DNA of 62,861 nucleotides, counting the filler. It is 5 parts of 5 records of this genome, joined end to end, with 100 filler letters (N's around TTAATTAATTAA, not from the genome) between each part and the next. Parts side by side here need not be neighbours in the genome. Positions count along the whole stretch, not along the records: positions 54,352 to 62,861 come from SRR22947727_1802; 4 more parts are not named here. One strand, 5' to 3'. This document shows, in pieces, positions 145 through 62,861 of this stretch. Position numbers and translations under genes: made by a program. Under the pieces are notes generated by a model. That model ran no database searches, was not told the DNA's origin, and saw only the letters and a list, made by a program, of their open reading frames with translations. Each line of letters begins with the position of its first letter. Position 1 is the first letter of the stretch.

Positions 145-156
145 AAATTAAATTTT

Positions 157-182
157 TAAGGGCTGGTGAAAACTGGCCCTTA
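157..182. terminator. Hairpin between convergent genes, probable intrinsic terminator
   Basis: TAAGGGCTGGT-GAAA-ACTGGCCCTTA stem-loop with G-U pairs. Confidence 0.65.
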
Positions 183-704: not shown

Positions 705-737
705 AGAAATTATTAATTCTTTTTGGAGGTATTGTAA

Positions 738-2558: not shown

Positions 2559-2569
2559 ATTATTTCACT

Positions 2570-3019: not shown

Positions 3020-3831
3020 TGACTTTAGTATCTACAGATTGGTTGGATAGTAATTTATTTAAAGTTAAAATTTTGGATGCAAGTTGGCATATGCCTTCAA
3101 CCAAAAGAGATGCAGAACAAGAGTTTTTAATTAATCATATTCCAAATTCTCAATTTTTTGACCTCGATAAGAATTCTGATAGCAATAATCTACTTCCACA
3201 TATGTTGCCTTCAAAGGAAAAATGGAAAGAAATTATTTCAAACTTTGGAATCGAAAATGATGATTATGTTATCATTTATGATGACTCTGACGTCATAAGT
3301 TCATGTAGATGTTGGTATATGTTTATATATTTTGGTCACGATATTAAAAAAATTTCTGTTTTAAATGGTGGATTAAAAAAATGGAAAAATGAAAATAGAA
3401 AATTAACTAAAGATATTTTAAAATTAAAAAAAACTAATTACCAAGTTACTGAAAATAAAAATCTTGTAAAAAATAAAGAAGAAATTGATTCAAATATTAC
3501 TTCTAAAAAATTTGATCTAGTTGATGCTAGGGGTAAAAAAAGATTTGATGGAATTGAACCAGAGCCAAGACAAGGACTTAGAAGTGGCCACGTACCTAAT
3601 TCAAAAAATTTACCTTTTATGGAATGTATTAATAATGATCGAACATTTAAAAGTAAAAAGGAGTTACAAGATTTATTCGCAAAAATGATGTTAGACAAAA
3701 AAAATAATATGGTTTTTACTTGCGGATCTGGTGTCACTGCGTGCGTTTTGGCACTAGCTAATTATGTTACAAATGATATGAATCCTGTGATTTATGACGG
3801 TTCTTGGTCTGAATATGGAATAATTAAATAA
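3019..3831 (+). CDS. sseA: 3-mercaptopyruvate/thiosulfate sulfurtransferase
   Basis: Two rhodanese domains, CGSGVTA active site, YDGSWSEY. Confidence 0.9.
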   Translation: MTLVSTDWLDSNLFKVKILDASWHMPSTKRDAEQEFLINHIPNSQFFDLDKNSDSNNLLPHMLPSKEKWKEIISNFGIENDDYVIIYDDSDVISSCRCWYMFIYFGHDIKKISVLNGGLKKWKNENRKLTKDILKLKKTNYQVTENKNLVKNKEEIDSNITSKKFDLVDARGKKRFDGIEPEPRQGLRSGHVPNSKNLPFMECINNDRTFKSKKELQDLFAKMMLDKKNNMVFTCGSGVTACVLALANYVTNDMNPVIYDGSWSEYGIIK

Positions 3832-3832
3832 A

Positions 3833-4708
3833 ATGAAATCTTCAAATAAATTTAAAATTTTTTTAATAATTATACTAATCGCTATAATTGGAGTTATTGC
3901 TGGAAGATATTTTATTGGTCAACATTTCAAAAAAAAATTTAGTGTAAGACCAGATCCAGGTGTAATTATAGAAATAGTTACCAAAAAAAGTTTTTTTGAT
4001 AGCATAGAAACTTTTGGAACGGCCATTGCTTCAAACTCCAAAACTTATCGAGTAAAAAAAGATGAGATTGATGGAAGCTTTGATAGTGAAGGAAAAATTG
4101 TAAAAAAAGATGATACTATTATTAAATTAAAAACAGATGAAACCATACTTGCAGACTTTGACGGAAAATTAGGAAAAAGAGAGATTGCTCAGGGTGTTTT
4201 AGGTACAGATAGTTTTATAATTACTTTAGATGATAGCAGTAAAATAGTTATAGATATTAAAATACCTGAAAATTTTGTTGGAATTTTAAAAAATGGTTTA
4301 GACGCAGAAATAAAATCTGATGCATTTAATAAAACCTTTTATGGAAAAATTGATTCTGTAAGTTCAAGAGTCGATCCTTCTACAAGATCAATATTAGCTA
4401 GGGTAGTAGTTGAAAACAAAGATTATGAGTTAATTCCAGGACAATTATTATCTGTAAAAATAATTTATAACAAAACTGAAACTTTAGGAATTTCTGAGAG
4501 ATCTATCACAATTCAAGGTGATACTGCTTTTGTATATGTTGTAAAAGATGAAAGTGTTGTTGAAAGAAGAAATATTAAAATAGGTCAGAGAAATTTTGGA
4601 TTAGTCTCAATAATAGACGGATTAAATGAAAATGAGAAAATAGTTTCAGAGGGCATATCTAAGGTTAGAGATAAAGGAAAAATTAAGATTATAAACAAAC
4701 CTAACTAA
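3833..4708 (+). CDS. RND efflux periplasmic adaptor (MFP)
   Basis: N-terminal TM, SRVDPSTRS, L.PG motif; directly upstream of an RND permease. Confidence 0.85.
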   Translation: MKSSNKFKIFLIIILIAIIGVIAGRYFIGQHFKKKFSVRPDPGVIIEIVTKKSFFDSIETFGTAIASNSKTYRVKKDEIDGSFDSEGKIVKKDDTIIKLKTDETILADFDGKLGKREIAQGVLGTDSFIITLDDSSKIVIDIKIPENFVGILKNGLDAEIKSDAFNKTFYGKIDSVSSRVDPSTRSILARVVVENKDYELIPGQLLSVKIIYNKTETLGISERSITIQGDTAFVYVVKDESVVERRNIKIGQRNFGLVSIIDGLNENEKIVSEGISKVRDKGKIKIINKPN

Positions 4709-4712
4709 AAAA

Positions 4713-7349
4713 ATGTTTTTAACTGACTTATCAATTAAGCGTCCTGTAATAGCTTCTGTGATGAGCTTGGTTTTAGTTTTATTTGGTTTAGTTACTTTTC
4801 AAGAAATACCCACGGATGAATTACCAGATGTCCAACCTCCTATAGTTTCTATTCAAACTGATTATAAAGGAGCATCTGCTGAAATTGTTGACTCTCAAAT
4901 TACTCAAAAAATTGAGGACTTTGTTGGAGGTACGCCAGGCTTGGAAACTATTGACTCTACAAGTGAAGATGAAAGATCATCGATTAGATTAACTTTTAAA
5001 ACTGGTTTAAACTTAGATAACGTAACTAACGATGTTAGAAATGCAGTTTCTAGAGTAGTAGATAATTTACCAGAAGGCGCTGAACCACCAGAAATATTTA
5101 AGCAAAGCGCAGGTTTTAGAACGACTATGTGGATCGAATTCAGTTCTGAGACTATGACAGATCTAGAGTTATCTGATTACGCTGATAGATATTTAATTGA
5201 TAATTTTTCAACTGTTGAAGGAGTTGGAAGAGTTACTCTTGGCGGAGAAAGAGAATTATCACTTAGAATTTGGCTTGATCCTATAGCTTTAGCAGCAAGA
5301 GATTTAACTACTCAGGAGGTTGAGGCAGTTTTAAGAAAAGAAAATTTAGAATTTCCTGCAGGAAAAATTGAAAGTAAAGATATCGATTTAACAATCAAAT
5401 TAGATAAAGCTTATCAAAACTTATCTAACTATAAAAAACTACCTCTAAAGAGATCTAAAGATGGATCTATTATAACTTTAGAAGATGTCGCAAAAGTAGA
5501 ATTAGGACCTGCTTCAACAAGAACTTTATTTAAAGGAAATGGAAGACAGGTTGTAGGTATAGGTATTTATCAACAATCAGATGCGAATACTATTGCGGTT
5601 GCAGATGGAGTTAGAAAAAAAATAGAAGAAATGCAAACTTCATTGCCTCCTAACACAAAGTTGGAAGTTTCATTTGATCGAAGTACTTATATATCTCAAG
5701 CAATAACAGAAGTTTATAAAACTTTAATTATTGCGGTAATTCTAGTAACAATTATTATTTATTTATTCCTTGGAAATATTAGAGCTCTAATTGTTCCAGT
5801 AGTGGCTCTTCCTGTTTCTTTAATATCTACTTTCTTGGCAATTTATCTTTTTGATTTTTCAATAAATCTTTTTACTTTAATGGCTCTAGTGCTTGCGATT
5901 GGTATCGTTGTTGATGATGCAATTGTGATGCTTGAAAATATCGTAAGAAGAATTGATGAAGGTGAAACCCCACTAGTAGCAGCTTATAAAGGTGCAAAAC
6001 AAGTTTCATTTGCAATTATAGCTACAACTGTTGTGCTTGTAGCCGTGTTCGTGCCGCTTGTTTTTATAAAAGGAATCACAGGTGTATTATTTACTCAAAC
6101 AGCAGTCACATTAGCTTCGGCAGTCGTAATTTCAAGTTTTGTTGCTCTTTCTTTAAGTCCAATGCTTGGAAGCAAATTTTTAAAAAAAAATATGGAAAAA
6201 AGAAGTTTTATTCTTAAGTTTGAAGGTAAATTAAAAGAGTTAACTTCAATTTACACAAGCTCATTAACTTACTGGCTTAAAAAGAAAAAAATAATTACGC
6301 TATTTTTATTTGGAACTTTTGTTCTTACAGTTTTTTTATTCAAATTTGCTCCAAAAGAACTCATTGCTGCTGAGGATAGAGGAGCATTCTTTGTAATAAT
6401 TAAAGCGCCAGAGGGATCTGGATTCAATTATACAAAATCAAAAGCCGAAGAAATCGAGTCTTTTTTACTTCCAGAAGTAGGAAAAGGTGAGTACAGAAAA
6501 CTAATTCTAAGAGTCCCGGGTTTTGGAAGATCTAATAAAGCTGTTAACAGCGGGTTTATAATTGTTCTCTTAGAAGATTGGGATAAAAGAAAAAGAGATG
6601 GTACACAAATAATGAGAGAGTCCTTTGGAAAAATTTCTAGAGTTCCAGGAGTGTTAGCTTTTCCTGTAATGCCTCAAAGCATTAGAACTGGAGGCGTTGA
6701 AAGCCCAGTTCAATTTGTAATTCTAGGTAGAACTTATGAGCAGTTAATACAATGGAAAGAAATTATAAAAAAAGAAGCAAGAAAAAATCCAGGCTTAACC
6801 TCTATTGATGATGATTTTGATTTAGATAAGCCTCAATTAAATGTAAAAATTGATCAACAAAAAGCTGCTGACTTGGGTGTGGCAACAGAAGATATTGGTA
6901 AAACTATTGAAACAATATTTGGTTCTAAAACAGTTACAAGATATGCATACGAAGGAAAAGAATACTCTATAATTTTGCAAGGAGACATTAAAGATAGGCA
7001 AGAACCTGGAAATTTAGATAAACTTTATGTCAGATCTAAAAATAATGGCAAATTAATTCCTATAGCCAGTTTAGTAAGTTATAATGAAAAAGGTGAAGCT
7101 CCTTTTTTAAGTCGTTACAATAGACAAAAAGCAGTTACGATTTCAGCAAGACTTGTTGGTGATTACACATTAGATCAAGCACTTAATTTTTTAGTAGAAA
7201 CTGTAAAAAACAATACTCCTGAAGCACAAATTGCATACAAAGGAGAGAGTGAAGAGTATAAAAAAACTAGTTATGAGATTTATTTTATATTTATTTTAGC
7301 TTTAATCACAGCGTATCTAGCAATGTGTGCTCAGTTTGAAAGTTGGAAA
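4713..7349 (+). CDS. AcrB/AcrD/AcrF-family RND permease (3' truncated at contig end)
   Basis: IKRPV start, GIVVDDAIVMLENI proton-relay motif; the listed stop is inside the linker. Confidence 0.92.
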
Positions 7350-7449
7350 NNNNNNNNNNNNNNNNNNNNNNNNNNNNNNNNNNNNNNNNNNNNTTAATTA
7401 ATTAANNNNNNNNNNNNNNNNNNNNNNNNNNNNNNNNNNNNNNNNNNNN
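7350..7449. other. Artificial contig linker
   Basis: N44-TTAATTAATTAA-N44, giving stops in all six frames. Confidence 0.98.
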
Positions 7450-34638: not shown

Positions 34639-35844
34639 TTAAAGCATCATTGTTATTGGTTTTTCAATGTATCTCTTAAAGTGTTGCAACCACTTTGCCC
34701 CCAAAGCTCCATCTATTACTCTATGATCACATGTTAAGGTTACTGTCATAATGGTTGCTAGGTCTAAAGCCCCTTCACGAACTATTGGTCTCTGATTACC
34801 TTCGCCTACGGACAGTATCATTCCATGCGGTTCATTTATTATTGAACCAAACTCTTTAATACCCATCATCCCAAGGTTAGATATTGAAAATGTTCCTCCT
34901 TGGTACTCAGTTGGTTTGAGCTTACGCTCTCTGGCTCGAGAGGCTAAGTCTTTCATTTCTGTAGAAATTTGTGATAAGCCTTTATTATCTGCTTGTCGAA
35001 TAATAGGAGTTATTAAACCGCTTTCGATTGAGACTGCAACTGCGATATCTGCATGTTTGTGTATTGCTATTCCATCCGGTGTATAGCTAGCGTTAGCTTC
35101 TGGGCAGTGTTTTAATGAAAGCGCTGAAGCTCTTATGAGCATATCATTTACACTTATTTTAACAAACTCACCTGCTTGTTGGTTTAGCTCTTTTCTAAGT
35201 CTAAGTAATTCATCAATTTCACAATCAATTGTTAATGGAAAACTAGGTACATTTTGTGAAGAATCCAGTAGTCGTTTCGATATAACTTTTTGAATATTGT
35301 TTAGGGGCACTAGGTCATAGGATCCTGGTTCTATTCCTAATTTAGTCAAATGCTCAGCACCTCCATACCTTAGCGCTCCTATTTCTTTTGAGGCAGAGTT
35401 ATCACTAAAGACTTGTTGATTGGTTTGAGATGGAATAATATTTGACTCTAAGTCTTTTATATAGGCTTCAATATCTATTTTTATAACTCTGCCGTTAGGC
35501 CCAGAGCCAGAAATTTGACTTAAGTCTACATTTAAATTCTTTGCCAGACGACGAGCTAGGGGAGATGACTTTATTTTTTCTAATTTTCCAGAAGCTTTTT
35601 CTTTTTGAGTATCTATTTCATTAATGGTTGCTTCCATAGTTTTTTCTACAGATTTACTAATTGGGGCTTGGTTAGTTGAGTCTTTGTAATTATTTAGTGA
35701 ACTTATATCTTCACCATCTTCAAGTAATATTGCAATTGGCCGGTTGACCTTAACATTAGTACTCCCTTCAGGAAATAGTAGCTTTACTATAGTTCCTTCC
35801 TCTACCGCTTCAATTTCCATAGTTGCTTTATCTGTTTCAATTTC
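34639..35844 (-). CDS. pdhC: Pyruvate dehydrogenase E2 acetyltransferase (5' truncated)
   Basis: Frame continues to the contig end as [10 protein letters not shown] (lipoyl); SPLARR, DHRVIDG. Confidence 0.93.
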
Positions 35845-46622: not shown

Positions 46623-46698
46623 TCCTCAATAGCTCAGTTGGTAGAGCACATGACTGTTAATCATGTTGTCCCTGGTTCGAGCCCAGGTTGAGGAGCCA
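46623..46698 (+). tRNA. tRNA-Asn(GTT)
   Basis: 76-nt cloverleaf TCCTCAA...CATGA-CTGTTAA-TCATG...TTCGA...TTGAGGA-G-CCA. Confidence 0.97.
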
Positions 46699-46742: not shown

Positions 46743-47483
46743 TTAGGTTTTCTGGCGGTTAATTTCATACAAGCAAATTCCTGAAGCCACACTTACATTT
46801 AAGCTTTCAACTTGGCCCATCATAGGAATTGAGAAAATATCATCACATAACTTTTTTGTTAGTCGCCTCATTCCTTTTCCTTCAGATCCCATCACCAAAG
46901 CAATAGAACCTTTAAAGTGAGTTTCTTGAAGAGGTTTATTTGCATCATCATCTGTTCCATAAACAAAGATATTTGAGCTCTTAAGGTATCTTATTGTCCG
47001 AGCTAAATTTGTCACAACTACAAAAGGCACAGACTCTGTACCACCACATGCAACCTTTCTTACAGTCGCATTTAATCCAACCGCATTATCTTTCGGACAA
47101 ATTAATGCATCAACACCCATAGCATCAGCAACCCTAAAACATGCCCCAAGGTTATGAGGATCAACGACGCCATCAAGTATTAAAAATAAAAGAGCTTTAT
47201 CATGATTTTCCTCAATAATATCCTCAATAGTTACATACCTATTTTGCGTTTCTCTCACTAACGCCACCACACCTTGATGCTTATTGCTTGAAACCATGCC
47301 ATCAAGTCTATCTTTAGTTGATAGATGAAATTTCACTTCGTTCTCTTTAATCAACTTTATTAAATCATTTACTCTGCCATCAGTTCTTGCCTCATCAATA
47401 AATACCTCCTTGACTGCTAAAGAATCTAATCTGATTTGTGAGGTAATTGAATGAAATCCATATATTTTCTTTTCAGTGCTCAT
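46743..47483 (-). CDS. rlmB: 23S rRNA Gm2251 methyltransferase
   Basis: HQGVVA, DPHNLGAC.R, GSEG.G, SLNVSVA. Confidence 0.95.
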   Translation of the reverse strand: MSTEKKIYGFHSITSQIRLDSLAVKEVFIDEARTDGRVNDLIKLIKENEVKFHLSTKDRLDGMVSSNKHQGVVALVRETQNRYVTIEDIIEENHDKALLFLILDGVVDPHNLGACFRVADAMGVDALICPKDNAVGLNATVRKVACGGTESVPFVVVTNLARTIRYLKSSNIFVYGTDDDANKPLQETHFKGSIALVMGSEGKGMRRLTKKLCDDIFSIPMMGQVESLNVSVASGICLYEINRQKT

Positions 47484-49729
47484 TTTTTCTTTTTTCGTTT
47501 AATTTTTTTATTACTTTTTTCAGACCTAATAAATGATTTTTTAAATTTTTTTGAAGATTTTTTTTGTGAGCCGATTAAGCCTAAATCAATTTTTATTGTA
47601 TCTAAATCAACTCTAATGACTTTTACTTCTAAACGATCGCCTAACCGGTAAGTTAGATTCGTTTTTTCGCCTACCATTGCATGCCTTGCTTTGTCGAATG
47701 TAAAGTAATCGTTACCCAACTCAGTTACATGTAAAAGCCCCTCAATATATATATCATCAAGCTCTATAAATAAACCAAAGCCGGTTACACCAGCAACTGT
47801 CCCCCAAAAACTTTGCCCCACCTTGTCTTGCATAAAATAACATTTTAGCCATGATTCAACATCCCTTGTAGCATCATCAGCCGTTCTCTCTGTGGTTGAG
47901 CAATGTAAAGCTACAGCTTCAATATTTTTAATAACTGGCGCCTTACCCAAAATTTGTGACTTAATTGCACGATGCACCGTTAGATCAGGGTATCTTCTAA
48001 TAGGCGAAGTAAAGTGGGTGTAAGCTGAATAAGCGAGACCAAAATGCCCAAGATTTTTACTGCTATAAACTGCTTGCTGCATTGATCTCAATAAAACTGT
48101 TTGCAGCAAATGTGAATCTGGTCGATTAGCGATCTTTTTAAGTATTTCTCCATAATCTTTTACCGTTGGTTCAGATCCGCCTCCCAGAGTCAGACCAAAA
48201 TCAAGTAAAAAATCTCTAAGATTCGCTAGCTTTTCCTCTGAGGGTGTTTCGTGATTTCGGTATATGCCATCACCAGGATTATCTAATAGATAGTTTGCTG
48301 CACAAACATTTGCAGATAACATACATTCTTCTATAATTCGATGCGCCTCATTTCTATAAATAGGCTTTATAAAGTCAATTTTTCCCTTGTCATTGAATAC
48401 AATTGAGGTCTCCGTTGAATCAAAATCTATTGCCCCTCTTTTTTCTCTTTTCTTTGATAAAAGTCTAAATAAATTTTGTAAATTAACTAAATCACCATAT
48501 GATTTTTGGTACTCCTTTTTTAACAGCTGGTCGTCATGATTTAATATTTTATCAACAATTGTATAAGTTAGCCTTGCCTTTGAATTCATCACTGAAGGAT
48601 AAAATTTATAATTCGTAATGTCTCCGTTTAAATCAAAAGTCATATCACAGACCATACACAACCGATCAACATTTGGGTTTAGCGAACAAAGACCATTTGA
48701 AAGAGCTTCTGGCAGCATAGGTATTACACGCCTTGGAAAATAAACCGAGTTGCCTCTTTCTAATGCAGATTCATTTAATTTTGAGTTCTCTTTTACATAA
48801 TTACTAACATCAGCAATTGCAACAACCAATCTCCAACTATCTTTTTTTTGCTCGGCATAAACTGCATCATCAAAATCTCTTGCTGTCTCACCATCAATGG
48901 TTACCAATGGTAAATCTCTTATATCAATACGACCCTTAAAGTCTTTTTCATTTACTTTTTGATCAAATGACTCTGCCTCATCAATAACTTCCTTCAAAAA
49001 CTCATAAGGTAAGTTGTGTTTTCTTAAAGCAATTTCAATCTCAATGCCGCTGTCAGAATAATTACCAAGAATATTTATCACCTTACCCATAGGTTTACTT
49101 CTGAAGCTGGGTTGGGTTGTTATCTCAACCTCGACTACATCACCTGTTTTTGCATCAAGGTCTAAGTCATATGGTATTAAAATATCCTGGCTAATTCTTT
49201 TATCTTCAGCCGAGACCACTGTCACACCTTGTCCCTGAATAACTCTTCCTACTAAAACCTTATTCACCCGTTCAAGTACCTCAACAATCTTTCCCTCCAG
49301 CCTCCCTCTTCTATCCTGGCCTGTTACCTGAACCATTACACGATCTTTATTAAATACCTGAGACATTTCTCTTGGGGATAAAAAAACATCATCCATTCCT
49401 TCGTCGTCTGGAATCAAGAAACCATAGCCATCTGGATGCCCCATCACACGACCTGAGCTTAAATTTATTTTTTTTGAGATACATAAAACATCTTTACGGT
49501 TAATTAAGACTTGCCCTTGTCGTTCCATTGCCCTTATTCTTTTTTCAAAAAAAATAATCTCGTTTTCTTGAATCTGTAACATTTTTATTAAGTCAGATTT
49601 TTTAACAGGCACTCCATGTTCTTCCATCACTTGCAGGATTAATTCTCTACTTGGTATTGGGTTTTCATAAAGCTCAGATTCGCGAGCTAATTGAGGGTCA
49701 ATTCTTTTAGTATTTTTCTTATTTTTCAT
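47480..49729 (-). CDS. rnr: Ribonuclease R
   Basis: GHPDGYGF, TIDGETARDFDDA, HFTSPIRRYPD, S1 domain, basic tail; start set to ATG 49729. Confidence 0.95.
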   Translation of the reverse strand: MKNKKNTKRIDPQLARESELYENPIPSRELILQVMEEHGVPVKKSDLIKMLQIQENEIIFFEKRIRAMERQGQVLINRKDVLCISKKINLSSGRVMGHPDGYGFLIPDDEGMDDVFLSPREMSQVFNKDRVMVQVTGQDRRGRLEGKIVEVLERVNKVLVGRVIQGQGVTVVSAEDKRISQDILIPYDLDLDAKTGDVVEVEITTQPSFRSKPMGKVINILGNYSDSGIEIEIALRKHNLPYEFLKEVIDEAESFDQKVNEKDFKGRIDIRDLPLVTIDGETARDFDDAVYAEQKKDSWRLVVAIADVSNYVKENSKLNESALERGNSVYFPRRVIPMLPEALSNGLCSLNPNVDRLCMVCDMTFDLNGDITNYKFYPSVMNSKARLTYTIVDKILNHDDQLLKKEYQKSYGDLVNLQNLFRLLSKKREKRGAIDFDSTETSIVFNDKGKIDFIKPIYRNEAHRIIEECMLSANVCAANYLLDNPGDGIYRNHETPSEEKLANLRDFLLDFGLTLGGGSEPTVKDYGEILKKIANRPDSHLLQTVLLRSMQQAVYSSKNLGHFGLAYSAYTHFTSPIRRYPDLTVHRAIKSQILGKAPVIKNIEAVALHCSTTERTADDATRDVESWLKCYFMQDKVGQSFWGTVAGVTGFGLFIELDDIYIEGLLHVTELGNDYFTFDKARHAMVGEKTNLTYRLGDRLEVKVIRVDLDTIKIDLGLIGSQKKSSKKFKKSFIRSEKSNKKIKRKKKK

Positions 49730-50264
49730 TAAATGAGAATAGATTGGGGAGGTTTCGCCCACCTCCTTTAAAGTCTAAGCCAAACCCGTAAACATATTTA
49801 TTAGGAACTTCTAAGCCTACAAAGTCTGCAGTCATTGATTTATTTTTACTAATTTTTTTATCAAATAAAACAGCTGTCACTATTGATCTTGCTCCCATAG
49901 ATTTTAATTCATTTTTTATATTGAGAAGTGTAATTCCCTCGTCAAGAATATCATCTAGCACCAATATATCTTTATTTTTAATGACACTAGCATTTGGCTT
50001 ATAAATCCAACTGCAATTCTTTGCTCCAATGTTTTGATGGTATCGGGTTACATGTACATACTCGATATTAGTATTAAACGAAAGCTGAGGGATAAGGTAG
50101 CCAGCAAAAGGAATCGCACCTTTCATTACCGGTAAAACAGTTACACTATAACTTAATTCTTTAAAATATTCGTTTATTGCATCTGCTATATTCGAAATGC
50201 TAATTTTAATTTCATCATAAGAGTATAAAATCTCGGAATCTTTGACTACATCCTTAATTGTCAT
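49719..50264 (-). CDS. hpt: Hypoxanthine-guanine phosphoribosyltransferase
   Basis: LVLDDILDEGITL, YVYGFGLD...RNLP. Confidence 0.88.
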   Translation of the reverse strand: MTIKDVVKDSEILYSYDEIKISISNIADAINEYFKELSYSVTVLPVMKGAIPFAGYLIPQLSFNTNIEYVHVTRYHQNIGAKNCSWIYKPNASVIKNKDILVLDDILDEGITLLNIKNELKSMGARSIVTAVLFDKKISKNKSMTADFVGLEVPNKYVYGFGLDFKGGGRNLPNLFSFNEK

Positions 50265-54352: not shown

Positions 54353-54880
54353 AAAATAATGATTGTAGGCATTACCCCTGGACTTCAACAAATGCTGCAG
54401 AGTTTTCAAGTAATAAATGATGGCAAATCACTAAAAGAAGTCAAAGATCTATCTAGCTTTAAAGGTAGTATGAGAACTACCCTAATTAAATACTTGGATG
54501 AATTAAAAGTAAATAAGAAATTAAAAATTAAATCTTGTGAGAGTTTATTTAATAAAAACAGCAAACATCTCCATACTACGTCTTTAGTTAAATACCCTGT
54601 TTTTGATAAGGGTAGAAATTATTCTGGGTCAAATATCTTAAAGAAAGAATTACTATTAAATTTCATTGAAAAGAATTTTCTTAAAGAATTGAAAATACAT
54701 CAAAATAGCATTATCATCCCACTTGGAAATACGGTTTCATCTACAATTAGATATTTGAATGACAAATATAACCTTAAATTATCATGCTTTCTTGAGGGTT
54801 TTCCGCATCCATCAGGTGCAAATGCTAGAAAGAATATTCAATTTAAAGAAAATAAATCAAGAATGCTGAAATTGTTATAG
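54353..54880 (+). CDS. Uracil-DNA glycosylase superfamily-like protein (probably 5' partial)
   Basis: Motif-1-like IVGITPG, IIPLG, motif-2-like FPHPSGAN. Confidence 0.65.
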   Translation, partial: KIMIVGITPGLQQMLQSFQVINDGKSLKEVKDLSSFKGSMRTTLIKYLDELKVNKKLKIKSCESLFNKNSKHLHTTSLVKYPVFDKGRNYSGSNILKKELLLNFIEKNFLKELKIHQNSIIIPLGNTVSSTIRYLNDKYNLKLSCFLEGFPHPSGANARKNIQFKENKSRMLKLL

Positions 54881-54897
54881 AATTAAACTAACTAAGA

Positions 54898-55239
54898 ATG
54901 CTAGATAAATTTAAAAAAACTTTAAATACTACGATAGAAAAATCTAAGGAAGTAACAAGTGTTTCAATAGCTAAATCTAAAGAAATAACAAATGCTTCTA
55001 TAGATAAATCAAAAGAAGTGACAGATGCTTCCATTAAATATGGTAAAAAATTTATACGTAAAAAAGCCATAGATAGTATTAGGGACAAGCTTGAGTTTGC
55101 TCAAAAGAAAGAGAGTGATTTTACTAATGAACAAATGCGTGAAATGATTCAAAAAGAAGAAAAAAAAATCATTAAAAGCTTTGGTATTAATGGTGCAGTT
55201 ACAACAATATTAGCTTTATTTGGGATTACAAACTTCTAA
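54898..55239 (+). CDS. Hypothetical protein with 11-mer amphipathic repeats and a C-terminal hydrophobic tail
   Basis: TIEKSKEVTSV/SIAKSKEITNA/SIDKSKEVTDA. Confidence 0.75.
   Translation: MLDKFKKTLNTTIEKSKEVTSVSIAKSKEITNASIDKSKEVTDASIKYGKKFIRKKAIDSIRDKLEFAQKKESDFTNEQMREMIQKEEKKIIKSFGINGAVTTILALFGITNF
54931..55029 (+). repeat. 3 x 33-bp degenerate intragenic tandem repeat
   Basis: ATAG..AAATC.AA.GAA.T.ACA recurs at a 33-nt period. Confidence 0.8.
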
Positions 55240-55631
55240 TGATTAAATGGCTTTCAAAACAATTTATCTGGGGTCAAATTTATCATTGGGCTAAAGATCG
55301 ATTAAGTGGAATTTTATTTACTGCAATTATCTTATTTTTGATAATTTACTTTCATAATGAATACTTAAAGTACATTGAGTTTAAAGAAAAAAATACTGGA
55401 AACTATATAGGCATTTCTTTCTTAATTAAAAATACATTAATCTTGATTGTAACTTTTAGTTATTTCTATTTTTATAAATTTTTAAATAAAGCAAAAGACA
55501 CTATTAAAAAGAGCGAAAAAAAATTAGAGCAAACTAATCATAACGATATGATTAAAACTGCTGATAGCAATGAGATGGTTGATAATTTAGACAGATTTCT
55601 AGAAGATGATGAAATTAATAGAGATAAATAA
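55239..55631 (+). CDS. Hypothetical two-TM protein
   Basis: TAATG coupling, two hydrophobic helices, charged tail. Confidence 0.7.
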   Translation: MIKWLSKQFIWGQIYHWAKDRLSGILFTAIILFLIIYFHNEYLKYIEFKEKNTGNYIGISFLIKNTLILIVTFSYFYFYKFLNKAKDTIKKSEKKLEQTNHNDMIKTADSNEMVDNLDRFLEDDEINRDK

Positions 55632-55693
55632 TGCTTGAAGCACTAATTATTATTGAATTAACATTTTTAACATACAAATTATTAACGGATTAA
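55631..55693 (+). CDS. Putative 20-aa peptide
   Basis: TAATG coupling; MLEALIIIELTFLTYKLLTD. Confidence 0.4.
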   Translation: MLEALIIIELTFLTYKLLTD

Positions 55694-55696
55694 CTT

Positions 55697-55876
55697 ATGA
55701 CAACTTGGCAAATTATACTGGCAATAATAGTTGTTGCATTATCAATTATAATGCCAATTTATTATTCTCATCAAAGAAAGAAAGAAGCTCAAAAAGAAGC
55801 AGAAGCTATAGAAAGAATGCAGATAAGAGAGTATGGAAAAAAAATAAACGATGAAACCAGAAATAAACACAAATAA
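55697..55876 (+). CDS. Putative 59-aa single-TM protein
   Basis: MTTWQIILAIIVVALSIIMPIYYSHQRKKEAQKE...; 3-nt gaps to both neighbours. Confidence 0.65.
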   Translation: MTTWQIILAIIVVALSIIMPIYYSHQRKKEAQKEAEAIERMQIREYGKKINDETRNKHK

Positions 55877-55879
55877 ATT

Positions 55880-56332
55880 ATGGGCTTCTTTGGAAAATCA
55901 TTAAAGAAACAACTTATTGATCTTGCTTTATCAAAATTGAAAGAGGGAGACCAAAAAGACTTCGATACATATTTAGATGAAATACCTGAAAGCTCTTCTT
56001 TAGGTAAAGAAAAAATAGATATTTTAAAAGATCATTGGAAAGCTGTTTTAACAATGTTGATATTGCACATATATTTAAGATTAGGAACTGAGGCGAAAGT
56101 TATATCCACTGGTGAATTTTCAGACATTGAAAATGCAATAAGACTTGAGTTAGGTTCAGTTGAAGTTGGTATGCTTTTATTTGATTATCAAAATAAAGGT
56201 TTAGATCCGAGTGAAATGATTTCTAAAAGTTGTTTTGATGAAAATCTATCTCAGTCTTCAAAGAATAAAATTTCAGATATTGTTCAAGAAGTTTATCAAT
56301 CTATTGAAAAATCAGTTCAGGTATTAATATAA
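55880..56332 (+). CDS. Hypothetical helical protein
   Basis: 150-aa ORF with an MGFFG start; no recognised motif. Confidence 0.7.
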   Translation: MGFFGKSLKKQLIDLALSKLKEGDQKDFDTYLDEIPESSSLGKEKIDILKDHWKAVLTMLILHIYLRLGTEAKVISTGEFSDIENAIRLELGSVEVGMLLFDYQNKGLDPSEMISKSCFDENLSQSSKNKISDIVQEVYQSIEKSVQVLI

Positions 56333-56431: not shown

Positions 56432-56803
56432 CTATTTTTTTTTCTTTTTGGTTTTTCTTTTAACCAAAGGGTTGGCACCATATTTATTTTTACCTTTAGT
56501 ACCCTCTGGAATTAAAAAGAATAATAGAATTAAACCTCCAATAAATGGAATAAAGCCTATTAAAAGAAAAAAACCTGATCTATTTGTGTCGTGGAGTCTT
56601 CGTACACCAACACTAATTGCAGGTATAAGAGTTACTAAGGCAATACCTAAAAAAAGATAAGATATATCCGTCTCTGTAAAGTCTGATATCACAAAGGAAG
56701 GGGTGACAATTAATTGAAACCACCAGTATTCTGATCTACTAGCTCTACCTTTAAAGACAAAATATTTGTTAAAACATGTCGATACTGATTCAGAAAATGT
56801 CAT
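56432..56803 (-). CDS. DUF805 (YhaH-like) membrane protein
   Basis: F.GRASRSEYWWF, VRRLHD..RSG, G..G.NKYG. Confidence 0.92.
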   Translation of the reverse strand: MTFSESVSTCFNKYFVFKGRASRSEYWWFQLIVTPSFVISDFTETDISYLFLGIALVTLIPAISVGVRRLHDTNRSGFFLLIGFIPFIGGLILLFFLIPEGTKGKNKYGANPLVKRKTKKKKK

Positions 56804-56935
56804 TTATATTTGTAACATAATTTTAGGTTGTTTTAAAAGATATATTAAAAGTACTTTATATATGCTCTTATTTAACCTTTAAATAATTGATTTTTTTTGA
56901 AATAGTACGATGATTGTATTAATTCATATTTAACA

Positions 56936-57640
56936 ATGATTACTCTTTTATTAACTATTATACCTTCAATATTAATTTTACTTTATTTTTTTTTATCAGA
57001 TAGGTTTAAAGAGCCCAAAGGGACAATAGCTTTAATTTTTTTCTTAGGTATTTTAATTTGTTTGCCTGCAGGAATTATCAATGGTTTTATGAATGATAAT
57101 TTTAATGATGGTTCAGATTTATCTGAAAAACTTTACTCAAGTTTTTTGGGACCTGCTTGGGCTGAAGAATTATTAAAATTTGTTATTTTATATTTTGTTG
57201 TTTTAAGAAGAAATGAATTTAACGAGCCAATGGATGGTTTAGTATATGGAGTAGTTGTATCCTTAGGCTTTGCAACTTATGAAAATTACACATATGTTTA
57301 TGAATGGGCTTCAACAATCGCTGCTGAAGAAAATTTAGATTTTACAAAATTTTCATATATTGTTGCTAAAGCAAGATCTTATTCAGCAATACCAATGCAC
57401 GGTTTAAATGGTGCAGTTATGGGATATTATTTCGGTCTCTACGCTTTTAGTAGTAAAAAAAAATATTTAATATTATCGCTCATTCTTCCATATTTATTTC
57501 ATGGTTTTTATAATTTCCTAGGATGGCCTAATATGCTTGTTATTATAGGTATCTTAATTGTTTATTCATTAGCTCTTCATTCTAATTTAAGAACATTGCA
57601 GCTAGCTAAGAAAAAAGAACAAGAGATTAAAAAAGTATAA
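56936..57640 (+). CDS. PrsW-family intramembrane metalloprotease
   Basis: EELLK, GFATYEN, PMH, HGFYN. Confidence 0.9.
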   Translation: MITLLLTIIPSILILLYFFLSDRFKEPKGTIALIFFLGILICLPAGIINGFMNDNFNDGSDLSEKLYSSFLGPAWAEELLKFVILYFVVLRRNEFNEPMDGLVYGVVVSLGFATYENYTYVYEWASTIAAEENLDFTKFSYIVAKARSYSAIPMHGLNGAVMGYYFGLYAFSSKKKYLILSLILPYLFHGFYNFLGWPNMLVIIGILIVYSLALHSNLRTLQLAKKKEQEIKKV

Positions 57641-57646
57641 TTATTT

Positions 57647-57802
57647 ATGAATAAAAGAAGAAAATTTATAATTTCATCACTATCAGGTTTGGCATTAGCT
57701 ACTTTACTGAGATTTACTTATGCCTCATCCTTTAATTTGGATGTAGTTGCGATAGGTTCAGGCGCTGCAGGAATGTTTTTAGGTAACAAGTTTATTGATT
57801 AG
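57647..57802 (+). pseudogene. 5' remnant of a Tat-exported FAD-dependent oxidoreductase
   Basis: MNKRRKFI (twin-Arg), hydrophobic core, DVVAIGSGAAGM (GxGxxG), then a stop after 51 aa. Confidence 0.65.
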
Positions 57803-57803
57803 C

Positions 57804-59384
57804 ATGAATAGAATCAAAATAATTTTTTTATTTATAATTATTACTTTCTTATCTTTTAATAATGTATATTCAGAGACTCCAAAGATCAATAACCCTCCTG
57901 AAATAGTAGATGAAAGGGTTGGTTGCAGTGTTTTCTTTAATAAATTACGCAAATCACCTAATAAAAAAGTAAGAAATTTTTATGCACAATTTACTTATGA
58001 TGATTTTGGTTTTTATCCAAAACCCTCCTTTAATTTAAATACAGGTGCTCGAAATTCTTTACCAAATAAAAATGGTAATCTTGTGGTTGGTCAAATATAT
58101 AATGATGTAACTGCTTCAAAAATAAAATCTGGTGATGAAATATTATCAATAAACAATAAAAAGATAAAAAATATTGATGATTTTTTAAAAATTATTTATG
58201 ACGAAAATATTAAAGAGATAAAAGTTAATCTATTAAACCGCCAACAAATAAAGTATGAAGTTATTTTAAATAAATCTTTAAATAGTTACAGAAAAGTAAA
58301 ATATTCAATTCAGAATTTTGATATTAGTAATATTGATATAAAAAAGAGCACGTATGATGTAACTATTAAACATAGTTTTTCAGATTACTACACAGATAAT
58401 GAGAGATCTGAATATAAAGAGAGTCATCCAATATTTGATTTATCATTAGGTACTCTTATTTATTTTGATGAAAAGTTTGATACATATAGCTATCATATTT
58501 GTGATATTCCTGAAAATGAATTCAAAAGTCGAACACTATTAGACCCTAGTTACAAAGTTAAAATTAATAACTTAATTAAAAATGATAAAGATTTAGAAGA
58601 AATTTCTAGTTATGCTACTCCTTATCATAAACTTGTTGGGAATACGAGTAATTATGTAAAAATTGAAAAAAGTTATTCTAGTGTATTGAAAATAAAAAAT
58701 AAATTTAATTTAAAATCCTTCCCTTTTGATAAGCAAGTACTTAAATTTCAAGTTATTGATCTTGGATATGGGTTGGATACTAGAATATTAGACCCTTCGA
58801 TTTTTACATACAAGTCCTTTGAAAATTTTCTTGCAATAGACGATATACCTGGATGGAATAAAAAGTCTTTTAAGATTGATAATTTAGCTTTTACTCCTGT
58901 CACTCAGAATGAAGGCGAATATAACGATTCACATATGGTGGAGTTAGTAATTGAACGTAAGCCTGGTTACTATATTTTTAAAGTTATATTTCCAATACTA
59001 CTAATATTGTTAATATGCTGGTCTGTAGTTTGGGTGGATCCTAAAGAACTAGAGGCAAGATTAACAATAACCATTGTCTGTCTACTTTCGTTAATTGCAT
59101 ATAATTTTGTTATTGATTCAGAGCTACCCAAATTAGAGTATTTAACTGTGTTAGACTGGGTTATCTTAATTTCATATATCTATGCGACTATACCAAACTT
59201 ATTAAGTATAATCTCTTTTAGATTGCTCAAAACCAACTTACCTTTAGGTAATAAAATAGAAAAGTTAAGCAAAAAATATGGTTTATCGTCTTATGTATTT
59301 TTAATTTTTTTTATTGTTTTGTTAAACGCTAACACTAATTTTGAACACTCAAGTTCACTTCTTTCATGGATGGCACCAAGATAA
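57804..59384 (+). CDS. Prokaryotic pentameric ligand-gated ion channel subunit with an N-terminal PDZ-like domain
   Basis: Signal peptide; IKSGDEILSINNK PDZ-like segment; Pro-loop FNLKSFPFDKQ; IER..GYYIFK..P..L M1; EARLTITIVCLLSLIAY M2; LPKLEYLT M2-M3 loop; 4 TM. Confidence 0.85.
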   Translation: MNRIKIIFLFIIITFLSFNNVYSETPKINNPPEIVDERVGCSVFFNKLRKSPNKKVRNFYAQFTYDDFGFYPKPSFNLNTGARNSLPNKNGNLVVGQIYNDVTASKIKSGDEILSINNKKIKNIDDFLKIIYDENIKEIKVNLLNRQQIKYEVILNKSLNSYRKVKYSIQNFDISNIDIKKSTYDVTIKHSFSDYYTDNERSEYKESHPIFDLSLGTLIYFDEKFDTYSYHICDIPENEFKSRTLLDPSYKVKINNLIKNDKDLEEISSYATPYHKLVGNTSNYVKIEKSYSSVLKIKNKFNLKSFPFDKQVLKFQVIDLGYGLDTRILDPSIFTYKSFENFLAIDDIPGWNKKSFKIDNLAFTPVTQNEGEYNDSHMVELVIERKPGYYIFKVIFPILLILLICWSVVWVDPKELEARLTITIVCLLSLIAYNFVIDSELPKLEYLTVLDWVILISYIYATIPNLLSIISFRLLKTNLPLGNKIEKLSKKYGLSSYVFLIFFIVLLNANTNFEHSSSLLSWMAPR

Positions 59385-60266
59385 ATGGCAAAGTTAGCTT
59401 TAATTAGATTTAGCATATTATCATTAAGCACTTATAATAAAAAAAAATTAATAAATATCTTAAATATTGGAATTTTTATATCCATATTTGCATTATCAGC
59501 TTCTATATTATCAATGTTTTATGAAGTAAAAATTGATAAGATTGAAAAAAAAATGATTTATGACGATATAAATAAAGTCATTTATAACGATGTCTTATTT
59601 CAAACTTCAAAATATATTAAAAATACAGATTCACTCTTAGATGATATTTTTCATCAAACAAGTCTAAAATTATTATTAGAAAAAAGTATTAATGATAAAA
59701 AATTAATGTCTAAAAGAGAAATTTTTTATACTCAATTTTTTTTATTAAAAACAAAAGTTGATTATAATAAAAATTTTATTGATAGTTCACTTAAAAACTC
59801 AATTATAGTTGCAGATGAAGAGGATGATTTAATACTAATAAAAAAATTTAGAGAAAAATATGATGATTTGTCAAAAAAAATTGATGGAATTAATTTTGAC
59901 CAAAATACACATGATTATGAAAAACAACCTCCTAGAGACAAAAACAATAATTATAATGAAACAAATCATTCTCTTGAGGAATGGTATAGTTATTATGAGA
60001 TTCTAGTTAAGCGCCATATGGATATTTTGATATTACAAAAAACTTTTTTTTATAATTTTAATATTGAATTTTTTACAAAAAAAAACAATCAGTATGATGA
60101 AAGAAAAAGACTAAATTTAGAAAAGATCAAAAAAAATTCAATATTGGAGTCCAGAGCAATATTTTTTGCTTTTTTAATACAATTGATAATTTTCGTAATT
60201 AGTCAATTTTTTGAATTAACATTAGATAACTTTATAAGAAAAAAAAAAAATGCGAAGAGGAAGTAA
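59385..60266 (+). CDS. Hypothetical protein: TM, large helical extracytoplasmic domain, TM
   Basis: Hydrophobic helices near residues 22-46 and 259-277; starts directly after the channel stop. Confidence 0.75.
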   Translation: MAKLALIRFSILSLSTYNKKKLINILNIGIFISIFALSASILSMFYEVKIDKIEKKMIYDDINKVIYNDVLFQTSKYIKNTDSLLDDIFHQTSLKLLLEKSINDKKLMSKREIFYTQFFLLKTKVDYNKNFIDSSLKNSIIVADEEDDLILIKKFREKYDDLSKKIDGINFDQNTHDYEKQPPRDKNNNYNETNHSLEEWYSYYEILVKRHMDILILQKTFFYNFNIEFFTKKNNQYDERKRLNLEKIKKNSILESRAIFFAFLIQLIIFVISQFFELTLDNFIRKKKNAKRK

Positions 60267-61074
60267 AATTTTAACAAGTAGTTTTGTATATTTAATATTA
60301 GCGGCAGTATTTAATTTGTCATCATTTTCATTAGATCAATTTGTTGTTCAGCAGGAAGATAAACTACGAGAAGTATCAAGAGAAATGATTAATCTTGAAA
60401 CTAAAATATCTACTTTAATTAATACAAAAAACTCAATTCAGGAACTTGCTTTTCAACTTATTAAAGAGGAAAACCTTCTTTATGATGCTTTAGACTTAAA
60501 TACACGCAGCGTAACAATGTTAAATGACAACACCAACTTATTTAATAAAAAGTTGGGAAAAAATGATCGTAAAGAATTAAAAATATATTTTAAAAAAAAC
60601 TTAATAAATTTTGCAAATAGATTTAATCTTAAATTAAATGAGCTTAAAAAAGTTATTAGTAGCAATCTTGATAATAAATTAATTAAAAATGAAATTTCAA
60701 TTTATGGTTACTCAGAAAAATTTGAAGAAGTGGTTAATTATACTCCTAATGAAATTAAAATTTCTATATTAGATGATTATGGCAAAGTTGGCACCAATGA
60801 ATATGAAGATGCTAACTATGAAATTTATAATTCATTATATGATAAGATATATAATAATTTTGGTATATCGTGGGATTTGGAGAGAATTTTTATAATCATA
60901 GACAAAATTTATATAAAAACGTTTATCCAATATCTAAATGTTTCTGATGTATATGCTGACATTAAAAATAAGAATAATTTTTTTATACTTCTGAGTATTG
61001 CGTCACAAATACTAGGAATTACTTTTTTATTATTGTTATTTAGATCCCTTGTAAGTGAGAAGGTTTATGACTAA
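60250..61074 (+). CDS. Hypothetical protein: TM, large helical/coiled-coil domain, TM
   Basis: Hydrophobic N- and C-terminal helices; overlaps both neighbours. Confidence 0.75.
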   Translation: MRRGSKILTSSFVYLILAAVFNLSSFSLDQFVVQQEDKLREVSREMINLETKISTLINTKNSIQELAFQLIKEENLLYDALDLNTRSVTMLNDNTNLFNKKLGKNDRKELKIYFKKNLINFANRFNLKLNELKKVISSNLDNKLIKNEISIYGYSEKFEEVVNYTPNEIKISILDDYGKVGTNEYEDANYEIYNSLYDKIYNNFGISWDLERIFIIIDKIYIKTFIQYLNVSDVYADIKNKNNFFILLSIASQILGITFLLLLFRSLVSEKVYD

Positions 61075-62095
61075 ATATTTTTTTATTTTTTTATTCATAG
61101 TTAATATTTTTTTTATGCCAAAAATTTCTAATTTATCAGCAGCATCACTTACATCTAAACAAACCGATCTTTATTATGCACTTGAAAATTGTAATTATAG
61201 ATCTGTAAAATGTATTAAAATCTACACAGAATTATTAAACCTTATAGAAGTTAGAAAAGATAAATATCAAATTGAAGATTATTTGGATATTAAGTATTGG
61301 GGTGCGGATTTCTTTTATAACTCTGGTGATGAAAAATTAAGAAGAAAAGGGATTGATTTATGGAATGAAATTATAAATGATTCAAATTTTGATAAAAATG
61401 AAAAAGAGATTACATATGCATATATAGCTTTAGGTTGGCATCACTACCTTGATATAAAAGATTTAGATGATGAAAAAGCTTTTTTATATATGTCAATAGC
61501 TGCCAAAACTGGAAGCCATTGGGCATTAAATAATTTAGGTGTTATTTACGAAGAAGGCAGAATTATTAAAAAAGATTTAAAAAAAGCATTTGAATTATAT
61601 TCTGAAGCAGCAGAACTAGGTAATGATTATGCTTATTCTAATATTGCTCGTTTTTATCTTCTTGGTCGAGCCGGTGTTGAGAAAAGTTTTGAAAAAGCTT
61701 TAAGAAATTACAAACTTTCTAGAATTTCAGAATTTGGTGATAATGATTTTGGAGACTTGGGCCTGTTATTGAAATATCAAAAAAATCCCTCCAACGTTAA
61801 GGAGTATTTGATGTGGTTGGAAAAAGATTTAATAGAAAAAAAATATCCTCCTATTTTTATTACATTGGCATGGGCTGTAGATTTTAATGAGGATAATAAA
61901 ATTATTCCATCAAAAAAAATATTAATGTCAGAATATAAGTGGTTTTATCTGTGTGAAAAATTTTCTACAATCTCAGAAGATACAACAAGATGTGCTCAAG
62001 AAATGGATATATTAGAACTACAAAACTTAACAAAAAATGAAGTTTCTATTTCAGTTAAAAATGCTGAAAATTGGATAGAGAAAAATTGGAATTAA
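61067..62095 (+). CDS. Exported Sel1-like repeat protein
   Basis: Signal peptide; ALNNLGVIYEEG...KD.KKAF.LY..AAELG and A..NIA.FY..G.AGVEKS..KA repeats. Confidence 0.88.
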   Translation: MTKYFFIFLFIVNIFFMPKISNLSAASLTSKQTDLYYALENCNYRSVKCIKIYTELLNLIEVRKDKYQIEDYLDIKYWGADFFYNSGDEKLRRKGIDLWNEIINDSNFDKNEKEITYAYIALGWHHYLDIKDLDDEKAFLYMSIAAKTGSHWALNNLGVIYEEGRIIKKDLKKAFELYSEAAELGNDYAYSNIARFYLLGRAGVEKSFEKALRNYKLSRISEFGDNDFGDLGLLLKYQKNPSNVKEYLMWLEKDLIEKKYPPIFITLAWAVDFNEDNKIIPSKKILMSEYKWFYLCEKFSTISEDTTRCAQEMDILELQNLTKNEVSISVKNAENWIEKNWN

Positions 62096-62100
62096 ATTAG

Positions 62101-62607
62101 TTAAAATTCTCTTTTTTTTTGACTTTTATAATCTGTTTTTTCACCCAAATTTAATTTTAGCTTAAGTTCAGCAATTTTTTTTTCTAATTCAATAACCTCA
62201 ATAGAAATTTGTTCTTTTTCATCTTCATCAACCTTATCATCATCTAAAGCATTACGAGTTTCTTCCATGATATCACCTATAGATTCTCCTAATCTGAGCA
62301 AATTATCAATAATTTCGTCACTACTGCCATGATCTTTTTGTTTAGCTATTTCTTTTCTAAGTAAAGTCTCATATGCAGTTAAGAAAGGAGTTCCTTTACC
62401 CAACTTTTTACAATGAATATCAAGCTCTAATCCATCTTGTATGTGTAGTTGTCTATCTTTGAAATTTGGATTACTTATATGTTCAATCGCTTTTCTCTTT
62501 TTTTCAATAACGGTTTCAATACTGTCATAACCAATATCATCAGCCAAATCTTTTAAAACTCTTTCAAATGAATAAGGTTTTCTAGGATAACCTTTTTTGC
62601 TCTTCAT
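62101..62607 (-). CDS. Phage regulatory CII (CP76/186-type)-like HTH protein
   Basis: HTH-like N-terminus ending in SNPN; C-terminal E.IGD.....ALDD.KVD..E...I helical hairpin typical of this family (recognised by eye). Confidence 0.6.
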   Translation of the reverse strand: MKSKKGYPRKPYSFERVLKDLADDIGYDSIETVIEKKRKAIEHISNPNFKDRQLHIQDGLELDIHCKKLGKGTPFLTAYETLLRKEIAKQKDHGSSDEIIDNLLRLGESIGDIMEETRNALDDDKVDEDEKEQISIEVIELEKKIAELKLKLNLGEKTDYKSQKKREF

Positions 62608-62626
62608 TTAACTAGCTTAATAGAAA

Positions 62627-62666
62627 TTTATCCGTAGGCAAAGCTGAAAGTTAACCTACGGGTAAA
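62627..62666. promoter_or_regulatory. Inverted repeat 20-60 bp upstream of the CII-like gene (operator or hairpin)
   Basis: TTTATCCGTAGG-N16-CCTACGGGTAAA, 11 of 12 positions complementary. Confidence 0.6.
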
Positions 62667-62719
62667 ATGGTCTAAGAGCACATATATTCTTAATATGTTT
62701 ATTAAGCAGTAAACATTAA

Positions 62720-62861
62720 GTGATTAAGACGAAAGTAGCTTACTGGTTTTAACCTTTTTATTTGCTTTCTACAGTATGCGTCATCGTCTAGTCATGAGTG
62801 GTTAAGGTGAAAGAAGCTTTCATTGTTAAGCCTTTCTTATGAATGCGTCATCATCTTAACC
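62720..62861 (+). ncRNA. Two tandem copies of an unrecognised structured element (62720-62795, 62800-62861)
   Basis: Each unit: outer stem, AAG(T/A)A, GC, T, 5-bp stem, loop with TTAA..CTTTCT, 5-bp stem, T, GC, GTCA, outer stem; stem sequences differ but pairing is kept. Confidence 0.6.

Follow-up and report, generated by a model that had tools for sequence, protein, structure and literature searches.

What are the two similar hairpins that close this stretch of DNA, and what might they do for the genes on either side of them? The window, by which we mean the whole 62,861-nt stretch analysed here, ends at 62720-62861 in what the first-pass annotation had described as two units of one architecture, lying 4 nt apart, and the sequence agrees exactly with that reading. 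The features of the locus, with coordinates counted along the window, are as follows.

62101..62607, - strand: gene for a 168-aa CII-like regulator, divergent from the leader
62631..62662, either strand: hairpin A, stem CCGTAGG / CCTACGG with a 16-nt loop, 23 nt upstream of the ATG of the CII-like gene (- strand)
62695..62716, + strand: inverted repeat ATGTTTA-N8-TAAACAT, 3 nt before unit 1
62720-62795, + strand: unit 1, with outer stem P1, internal loop AAGUA/GUCA, a clamp of a G-C and a C-G pair, a U-U mismatch and inner stem P2 (UACUG/CAGUA)
62765-62769, + strand: CUUUC at the end of the 26-nt, U-rich apical loop of unit 1, with GAAAG at 62731-62735
62796-62799, + strand: linker GAGT, 4 nt, joining unit 1 to unit 2
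62800-62861, + strand: unit 2, of the same architecture as unit 1, with P2 UUCAU/AUGAA and internal loop AAGAA/GUCA, stopping at the window end
62832-62836, + strand: CUUUC in the 15-nt apical loop of unit 2, with GAAAG at 62809-62813

Two hairpin modules of one design

Each module follows a single plan, in which an outer stem of 11-13 pairs leads through a 5x4 internal loop, the G-C/C-G clamp and the U-U mismatch to an inner stem and a variable, U-rich apical loop ending in CUUUC, which sits 2 nt ahead of the closure of the inner stem. Modules are 62-80 nt in size, and the linker between them in homologues is mostly GAGT, GAGC or AAGT, with TAAAGT in one case (L201). Folding of the + strand gives -19.0 kcal/mol for unit 1 (z -3.48) and -19.4 kcal/mol for unit 2 (z -4.32), and for neither unit was any of 200 shuffles as good; the corresponding - strand folds are weaker, at -14.0 for unit 1 (5/200 shuffles as good) and -15.9 for unit 2 (2/200). 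The core pattern common to both units occurs twice in the window, where none would be expected from 100 shuffles, and a covariance model, R1, run on the window found only these two units, scoring unit 1 at 87.1 bits (E 6e-18) and unit 2, truncated at its 3' end by the window edge, at 72.2 bits.

Conservation, covariation and strand

A tightened sequence pattern run against a metagenome collection returned at least 34 true homologous loci among the 120 matches listed, and these loci, together with the window, supplied 59 + 1 units, 41 of them distinct, for an alignment. Because the pattern imposed GAAAG, AGCT, CTTTC and TGCGTCA on at least one unit per locus, the invariance of these words in the units that it matched is by construction. 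Nine distinct units lay outside the pattern and entered as neighbours, eight of them with GCGCCA and one with GAGAG, and CUUUC stands at the same place in all nine. Across the 41 distinct units, both clamp pairs and both U residues of the U-U mismatch are invariant, as are A15, G16 and A18 on the 5' side of the internal loop and G67, C69 and A70 on its 3' side; among the remaining columns of the loop, a single unit has G in place of A14, column 68 alternates between U and C, and any of U, A and C may stand in column 17. The U-U mismatch and most letters of the internal loop are therefore fixed, as first proposed, with columns 14, 17 and 68 excepted, and from the apical TTAA...CTTTCT that had been described as conserved, CUUUC is kept but TTAA is not conserved in the loops of unit 1.

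The stems, by contrast with shuffled alignments, hold together as they change. Pair cells are paired in 98.2% of 769 cases over the 41 units, as against 87.0% in shuffles, and 0/500 shuffles reach the observed value. Two-sided changes are seen at 8 of the 19 pairs, the covariation score is 0.403 (shuffling gives 0.201, and sliding the partners no more than 0.098), and RNAalifold, unprompted, recovers 17 of the same 19 pairs. Since the units are close kin that fall into two main types, cell counts of this sort overstate the independent changes; counts of pair types are free of inflation by kinship. The inner stem P2 takes at least eight forms, every one of which pairs, and the compensatory difference between TACTG/CAGTA and TTCAT/ATGAA, originally noticed between the two units of the window, extends as covariation through the whole set of distinct units. 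In the outer stem, the 5' strand UUAAG is nearly fixed while its partner bases drift by way of wobble pairs, which suggests that this stem is under a constraint beyond pairing.

The + strand had been preferred from the outset on account of G-U wobbles, and three lines of evidence now agree on it: 57 G-U cells in the alignment would be A-C mismatches on the opposite strand and fit the + strand only, the + strand folds are the better ones, and R1 scores the listed loci at 55-92 bits on the + strand and at no more than 24.5 bits on the - strand. The element is thus very probably a conserved, covarying functional RNA structure specific to the + strand, and it has one feature of the riboswitch type, namely a covarying, aptamer-like fold with invariant unpaired letters.

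A leader at the head of a variable operon

Two metagenomic loci (L134 and L144) match window 62095-62861 at 99.2-99.5% identity and extend beyond the window end, where unit 2 is followed by 21 nt, AAGGA, and then the ATG of an 83-aa ORF with a signal-peptide-like start. Because these near-identical contigs run within 20-21 nt into a ribosome-binding site and an ATG, the module is the 5' leader of the next gene. The suggestion that an array might continue past the window is not upheld, in that two units were counted and the gene on the far side is the 83-aa ORF, and what had looked like a free-standing tandem array is better described as a leader set 20-21 nt ahead of the ribosome-binding site.

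The same arrangement recurs among the matches listed. The element lies on the strand of the downstream genes in 34/34 loci, with two units in 26 loci, one unit in seven, and one locus cut off. Of the 32 loci long enough to show it, 29 have a ribosome-binding site of the form A[AG]GGA[GTA] starting 20-21 nt past the last unit, and in those 29 an ATG follows it after 11-12 nt; in the remaining three loci an extra hairpin stands between the last unit and the ribosome-binding site, at a distance of 68-80 nt. Two or three further pairs could lengthen the last stem, leaving about 19 nt to the ribosome-binding site. When the full leader of one locus (L149) is folded, three hairpins appear in series, formed by the inverted repeat and the two units in turn, and the ribosome-binding site stays open.

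What follows the leader is far from constant. Among the same 34 listed loci, the first downstream gene encodes a secreted protein of 83-87 aa in 17, a MADPxKF protein of 83 aa in eight, DUF2130 in four and small membrane proteins in three, and is cut off in two, so that four or five classes of cargo stand behind one unchanging leader. Further genes of the operon include DUF2130 (PF09903), DUF805, a Cas4-like PD-(D/E)XK protein and an HATPase_c_3 protein. DUF2130 is listed as a PD-(D/E)XK family (PMC3424549), and a search of the DUF2130 literature found no report dealing with RNA.

Scanning the 34 listed loci with R1 found no units elsewhere except for a remnant in L174. In that locus (1780-2260, - strand) a duplicated N-terminal fragment of DUF2130 (80 aa) comes first, then a third, decayed unit, and then the full gene, an arrangement that is a recombination scar inside the operon. 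The displaced unit scores 55 bits and has lost the letters of the clamp, of CUUUC and of GCGUCA; conserved letters therefore decay away from the leader position, which would fit selection acting only at that position.

Simple scans found neither a sigma-70-type promoter nor a + strand terminator near the element, and a terminator-like hairpin inside the L149 operon lies on the - strand. RNA-library contigs extend over the element and the genes on both its sides in two runs, both from one study, and the small gene downstream is covered in runs from two other studies; these contigs are strandless and open to DNA carry-over, and as evidence for transcription through the element they are weak. In the RNA sets X6 and X7 the units are without contig cover, which carries no weight as absence. 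Two X7 contigs that end at one spot inside unit 2 were considered as RNA ends and set aside, as they look like graph bubbles.

The CII-like gene and the left flank

The divergent gene on the left had been called CII-like, and the searches support that likeness: the protein scores 24 bits against Pfam PF06892, below the cut-off of 26, matches PHROG 101, 'CII-like transcriptional activator', over residues 12-152 (E 1e-6), and has an Atlas score of 0.97 to CII clusters. The 132 clusters related to it include many, 60-93% identical, that carry a precomputed PF06892 assignment. Among the matches listed, the 168-aa CII-like gene is the neighbour of the element in 32 of 34 loci. The other two (L183 and L208) have another CII-like gene, of 152 aa, about 1 kb away (PF06892 E 0.0027 for the L183 protein), and their homology to the other loci starts just upstream of the inverted repeat.

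Hairpin A is kept in homologous loci, where it also takes the compensated form CCGGAGG/CCTCCGG, and no ribosome-binding site of the CII-like gene is recognisable in the 23 nt between this hairpin and the ATG. Hairpins of a recurrent type, GTAGGC ... AACCTAC with a 10-17-nt loop, are found at 62631-62662 of the window and in L179 and L149, always in the same orientation. One stands on the + strand after unit 1 in the single-unit loci L179 (about 918-950), L238 and L214, and another, ahead of DUF2130, falls inside the MADPxKF gene at its 3' end (L149, about 1800-1830).

The inverted repeat at 62695-62716 varies in homologues while remaining symmetric, as in ATGTTTG/CAAACAT and in ATGCTTCC/GGAAACAT, the latter with one mismatch. 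By analogy with phage 186, whose CII is described as binding an inverted repeat at positions -38 and -58 of the promoter that it targets (PMC6593788), the repeat may be a candidate operator of the CII-like protein; equally, judging by the predicted L149 fold, it may be the first hairpin of the leader RNA.

Beyond the CII-like gene, window 56432-61074 encodes DUF805, a PrsW-family protease and two membrane proteins; compared by eye, these far-side genes resemble those of some loci (L204, L183 and L198 were compared) and differ from those of others. Further left, at 54359-56332, four ORFs of 113-173 aa without a Pfam match mark the shift from housekeeping genes (RNase R, RmuC and a Cys/Met PLP enzyme) to unannotated ones. 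The locus seems to lie at the edge of a variable chromosomal region.

Host and composition of the window

Sequence comparison indicates that the window is a composite. Its segment 7450-35844 (28.4 kb, G+C 0.35-0.39) is 99-100% identical to a single contig (G001:C19) of the nearest genome compared, G001, and the flanks, 1-7449 and 35845-62861 (G+C 0.26-0.35), which include the element, have weak or no matches in G001. A 36-nt stretch at the right-hand join, 35809-35844, has a second match to the same contig at 94%. The window may represent either a chimeric assembly or a very recent transfer.

Among the clusters listed, named NCBI records of the CII-like protein belong to Candidatus Pelagibacter only (2 of the 8 clusters looked up; 2 among the 120 listed), and an attribution of the element to SAR11 is tentative. 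The A+T-rich part of the window has relatives at some distance among the genomes sampled. For its RNase R protein (47480-49762) the highest identity is 54-55% in a set of 401 genomes of the phylum and 61% (in G1052) in a set of 61 genomes of one order, and its aminotransferase is 68% identical to that of G1052, the best among sampled genomes; an RNase R search at E 1e-290 gave 0/250 genomes of the class, a threshold too strict for ranking.

Several searches for the element drew on samples that have no bearing on its distribution. R1 gave 0/151 and 0/17 in genomes around G001, which share only window 7450-35844, as well as 0/3, and 0/151 around G1052, in a sample that holds no known element carrier; the CII-like protein likewise gave 0/400 genomes (one more unscored) in a sample without a known carrier. 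The sequence pattern matched 7/201 of the genomes around G001 as against 4 control matches, none of them hairpin-like, and G001 itself lacks the element-bearing part. A loose, gapped 16-letter pattern gave 0 true loci among the 127 checked from the matches listed in contigs of named genomes. In a collection of viral contigs, the protein search and the strict pattern found nothing, and a looser pattern found five chance matches without stems.

Known families and the RS05825 motif

The absence of a recognised family, asserted at first from the sequence alone, holds against Rfam 15 (4227 models), where nothing reaches its gathering score at the element. Over the whole window the one match is a tRNA at 46623-46695; in the region 62560-62861, searched at E up to 10, the best is rliF with 21.4 bits against a gathering score of 60; and five complete homologous loci, searched on both strands at E up to 1, have no match. 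The survey of Pelagibacter RNAs by Meyer et al. 2009 (PMC2704228), in the portion available to us, describes nothing resembling the element.

The nearest published candidate is the RS05825 motif of SAR11 strain HIMB5, which Stav et al. 2019 (BMC Microbiol 19:66, PMC6429828) termed a 'strong riboswitch candidate'. Those parts of the paper that we draw on give 80 unique examples, confined to SAR11 and unassigned metagenome sequence, with three hairpins and an asymmetric internal loop in P2, and list a span of 166 nt (NC_018643.1 1096812-1096977); no later literature on the motif was found. Measured against that partial description, the likenesses are several: the L149 leader likewise lines up three hairpins and has an asymmetric internal loop that is conserved, both elements stand near a ribosome-binding site ahead of a gene of unknown function, upstream neighbour genes occur in both directions, and the span here is 167 nt (62695-62861). 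The distance to RmuC is about 2 kb for RS05825 in HIMB5 and, within the window, about 9.5 kb for the present element. There are also differences, in that P3 of RS05825 is placed 8-12 nt from the ribosome-binding site, whereas the distance here is 20-21 nt in 29/32 loci; RS05825 is said to be always upstream of one gene (HIMB5_RS05825), whereas four or five classes follow the present element; and two like units do not figure in those parts of the paper. Compared by description only, the element is quite possibly the RS05825 motif, an identification to which we give somewhat less than even weight. What we describe is a structured leader RNA outside any curated family that may already be published under that name.

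How the leader might act

We favour a structured 5' leader that controls the first gene of the variable operon in cis, either riboswitch-like or bound by a protein, a proposal for and against which the arguments are about evenly poised. Transcription would start upstream of the leader, so that the + strand mRNA would begin with the inverted-repeat hairpin and continue with one or two hairpin modules of 62-80 nt. The loop CUUUC could pair with GAAAG at the base of its own module, forming a pseudoknot, or alternatively with AAAGG of the ribosome-binding site, which follows the last module at a constant 20-21 nt; the balance between the two CUUUC pairings would then be shifted by temperature, by a protein or by a ligand, and the presence of two modules would sharpen the response. 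A switch of CUUUC between GAAAG and the ribosome-binding site is the more speculative part of this proposal, and we think it rather unlikely in that particular form. The sequence CCUUUCU is similar to the 3' terminus that 16S rRNA has in many bacteria, and GAAAG is similar to a portion of an extended ribosome-binding site. The complementarity between CUUUC and AAAGG amounts to 5 nt, with 4 pairs in unit 1 types; no helix hiding the ribosome-binding site was found in the L149 minimum-energy fold, where the site is open; and because CUUUC is invariant and GAAAG unvarying save for the one GAGAG unit, no covariation backs the pseudoknot.

Like the tandem aptamers of the glycine riboswitch and of guanidine-II (mini-ykkC), the element presents two like units side by side in a 5' leader, where the stems covary and unpaired letters are conserved. 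It differs from them in having no covariance-model match at E up to 10, in that single-unit forms are common, and in that the downstream genes share no metabolic theme. A classical metabolite riboswitch is thus disfavoured, because the first genes and those behind them are unrelated and there is no clear expression platform.

The leader might instead sense nothing, its hairpins merely stabilising the mRNA against 5'-end-dependent decay or serving as a standby platform for the ribosome. Three stable hairpins at a putative transcript start with the ribosome-binding site open, a leader that stays constant though its cargo varies, and a fixed distance to the ribosome-binding site would all suit such a role, for a transcript that belongs to a weakly expressed, horizontally shuffled operon. 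A stabiliser would not, however, need the invariant 5x4 loop, the U-U mismatch, the fixed UUAAG or the fixed CUUUC, and we regard this explanation, the weakly expressed operon included, as improbable.

Marginally less probable again is that the units are excised from the leader as small stable RNAs, by analogy with the CI and c4 immunity RNAs of satellite phage P4 and phage P1, whose loops pair with the ribosome-binding regions of their own operons. The phage-like regulatory setting with its CII-like neighbour, the long outer stems of 11-13 pairs, the complementarity of CUUUC to the AAAGG of ribosome-binding sites, and the occurrence of units singly or in pairs all recall these RNAs. The complementarity extends over just 5 nt, however, and Rfam, which contains a C4 antisense RNA family, gave no match either at the window end (E up to 10) or in the five loci (E up to 1). 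Compared with phage immunity leaders in general (P4 CI, P1 c4, HK022 put), the element shares a structured RNA at the start of an operon with a phage-type regulator adjoining, but it lies in a chromosomal setting with no surrounding phage genes and no Rfam match.

The put RNA of phage HK022 acts on RNA polymerase as an antitermination signal, and the two hairpins right behind the presumed promoter of a long, shuffled operon could by analogy provide a processive signal of this kind for heterogeneous genes. The terminator-like hairpin in the L149 operon would suit such a signal, though it is on the - strand; the seven single-unit loci among the matches listed speak against it, and the fixed spacing of 20-21 nt favours an effect on translation over one on elongation. 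We rate antitermination as distinctly improbable.

Slightly less probable still is that each unit is a small self-cleaving ribozyme. Under it, a 60-80-nt hairpin with A-A-G-W-A facing G-Y-C-A and a pseudoknot from loop to base would represent a new class that cuts the leaders of nuclease-rich operons, a proposal in which we place very little confidence. The size of 62-80 nt, the invariant internal loop, the possible pseudoknot and the multiple copies are typical of such a class, and genes for DUF2130 and other PD-(D/E)XK nucleases lie downstream. Hairpin ribozymes carry the letters AGAA / N-GUC in loop A, which AGAA facing GUC in the internal loop of unit 2 recalls. Rfam, which holds the known ribozyme classes, gave no family match, however, and there is no second loop for docking; a hairpin ribozyme proper was rejected on these same grounds of no loop B and no Rfam match, together with a loop of 5x4 instead of 4x4 and AGUA instead of AGAA in unit 1. 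The twister and hammerhead ribozymes have unexplained gene neighbourhoods in common (PMC6765202), and the leader would lie in a neighbourhood of the kind that bacterial ribozyme classes share, but the equation of a 'protein 130' with DUF2130 is a guess.

Could the hairpins act as single-stranded DNA, serving recombination or replication in the manner of attC or of a transposon end? Such a site would account for the changing cargo, of which the variable downstream genes and the recombination scar of L174 are signs, and the element shares with integron attC sites an imperfect, strand-biased hairpin with unpaired conserved bases, a variable loop and changing genes adjoining; the words TTAAC/TTAAG also recur. 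The units do not flank each gene, however, R1 finding only the L174 remnant elsewhere in the listed loci, and the left neighbour is nearly always the same gene. The attC boxes read RYYYAAC (5') and GTTRRRY (3'); the outer stem of the element, G[AG]TTAAG ... CTTA[AG][CT]C, departs from them and has the wrong order, and with no further units within the operons and no integrase or other recombinase domain among 40 proteins scanned, integron attC was rejected and a DNA site of any such kind is highly improbable.

Repeats of a type III toxin-antitoxin system (ToxI-like) were also rejected, the downstream gene not being conserved and PADLOC giving no toxin-antitoxin match among 12 proteins. Finally, a short hydrophobic peptide starting with GTG/ATG at the first base of unit 1 is hardly credible and was rejected, for although a start codon stands at the same place in 21/21 distinct forms and a 28-aa frame is open in 11, the open frames range from 7 to 50 aa, their second half runs in different frames between loci, the frame of the window copy closes after 10 aa, there is no upstream ribosome-binding site, and coding does not explain the compensatory stem changes.

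Implications

The element is a testable orphan, for which a ligand, a protein partner or self-cleavage can be sought. If it is the RS05825 motif, the present analysis adds to that motif a modular architecture of one or two units, evidence for the strand, and a variable cargo. In streamlined marine bacteria protein regulators are few, and control by RNA plays a large part. Here, next to a gene for a phage-type activator, a leader stands at the head of an operon that differs in content between strains, and if that leader is a true sensor of a signal, it would show how an island of variable genes is switched as a block.
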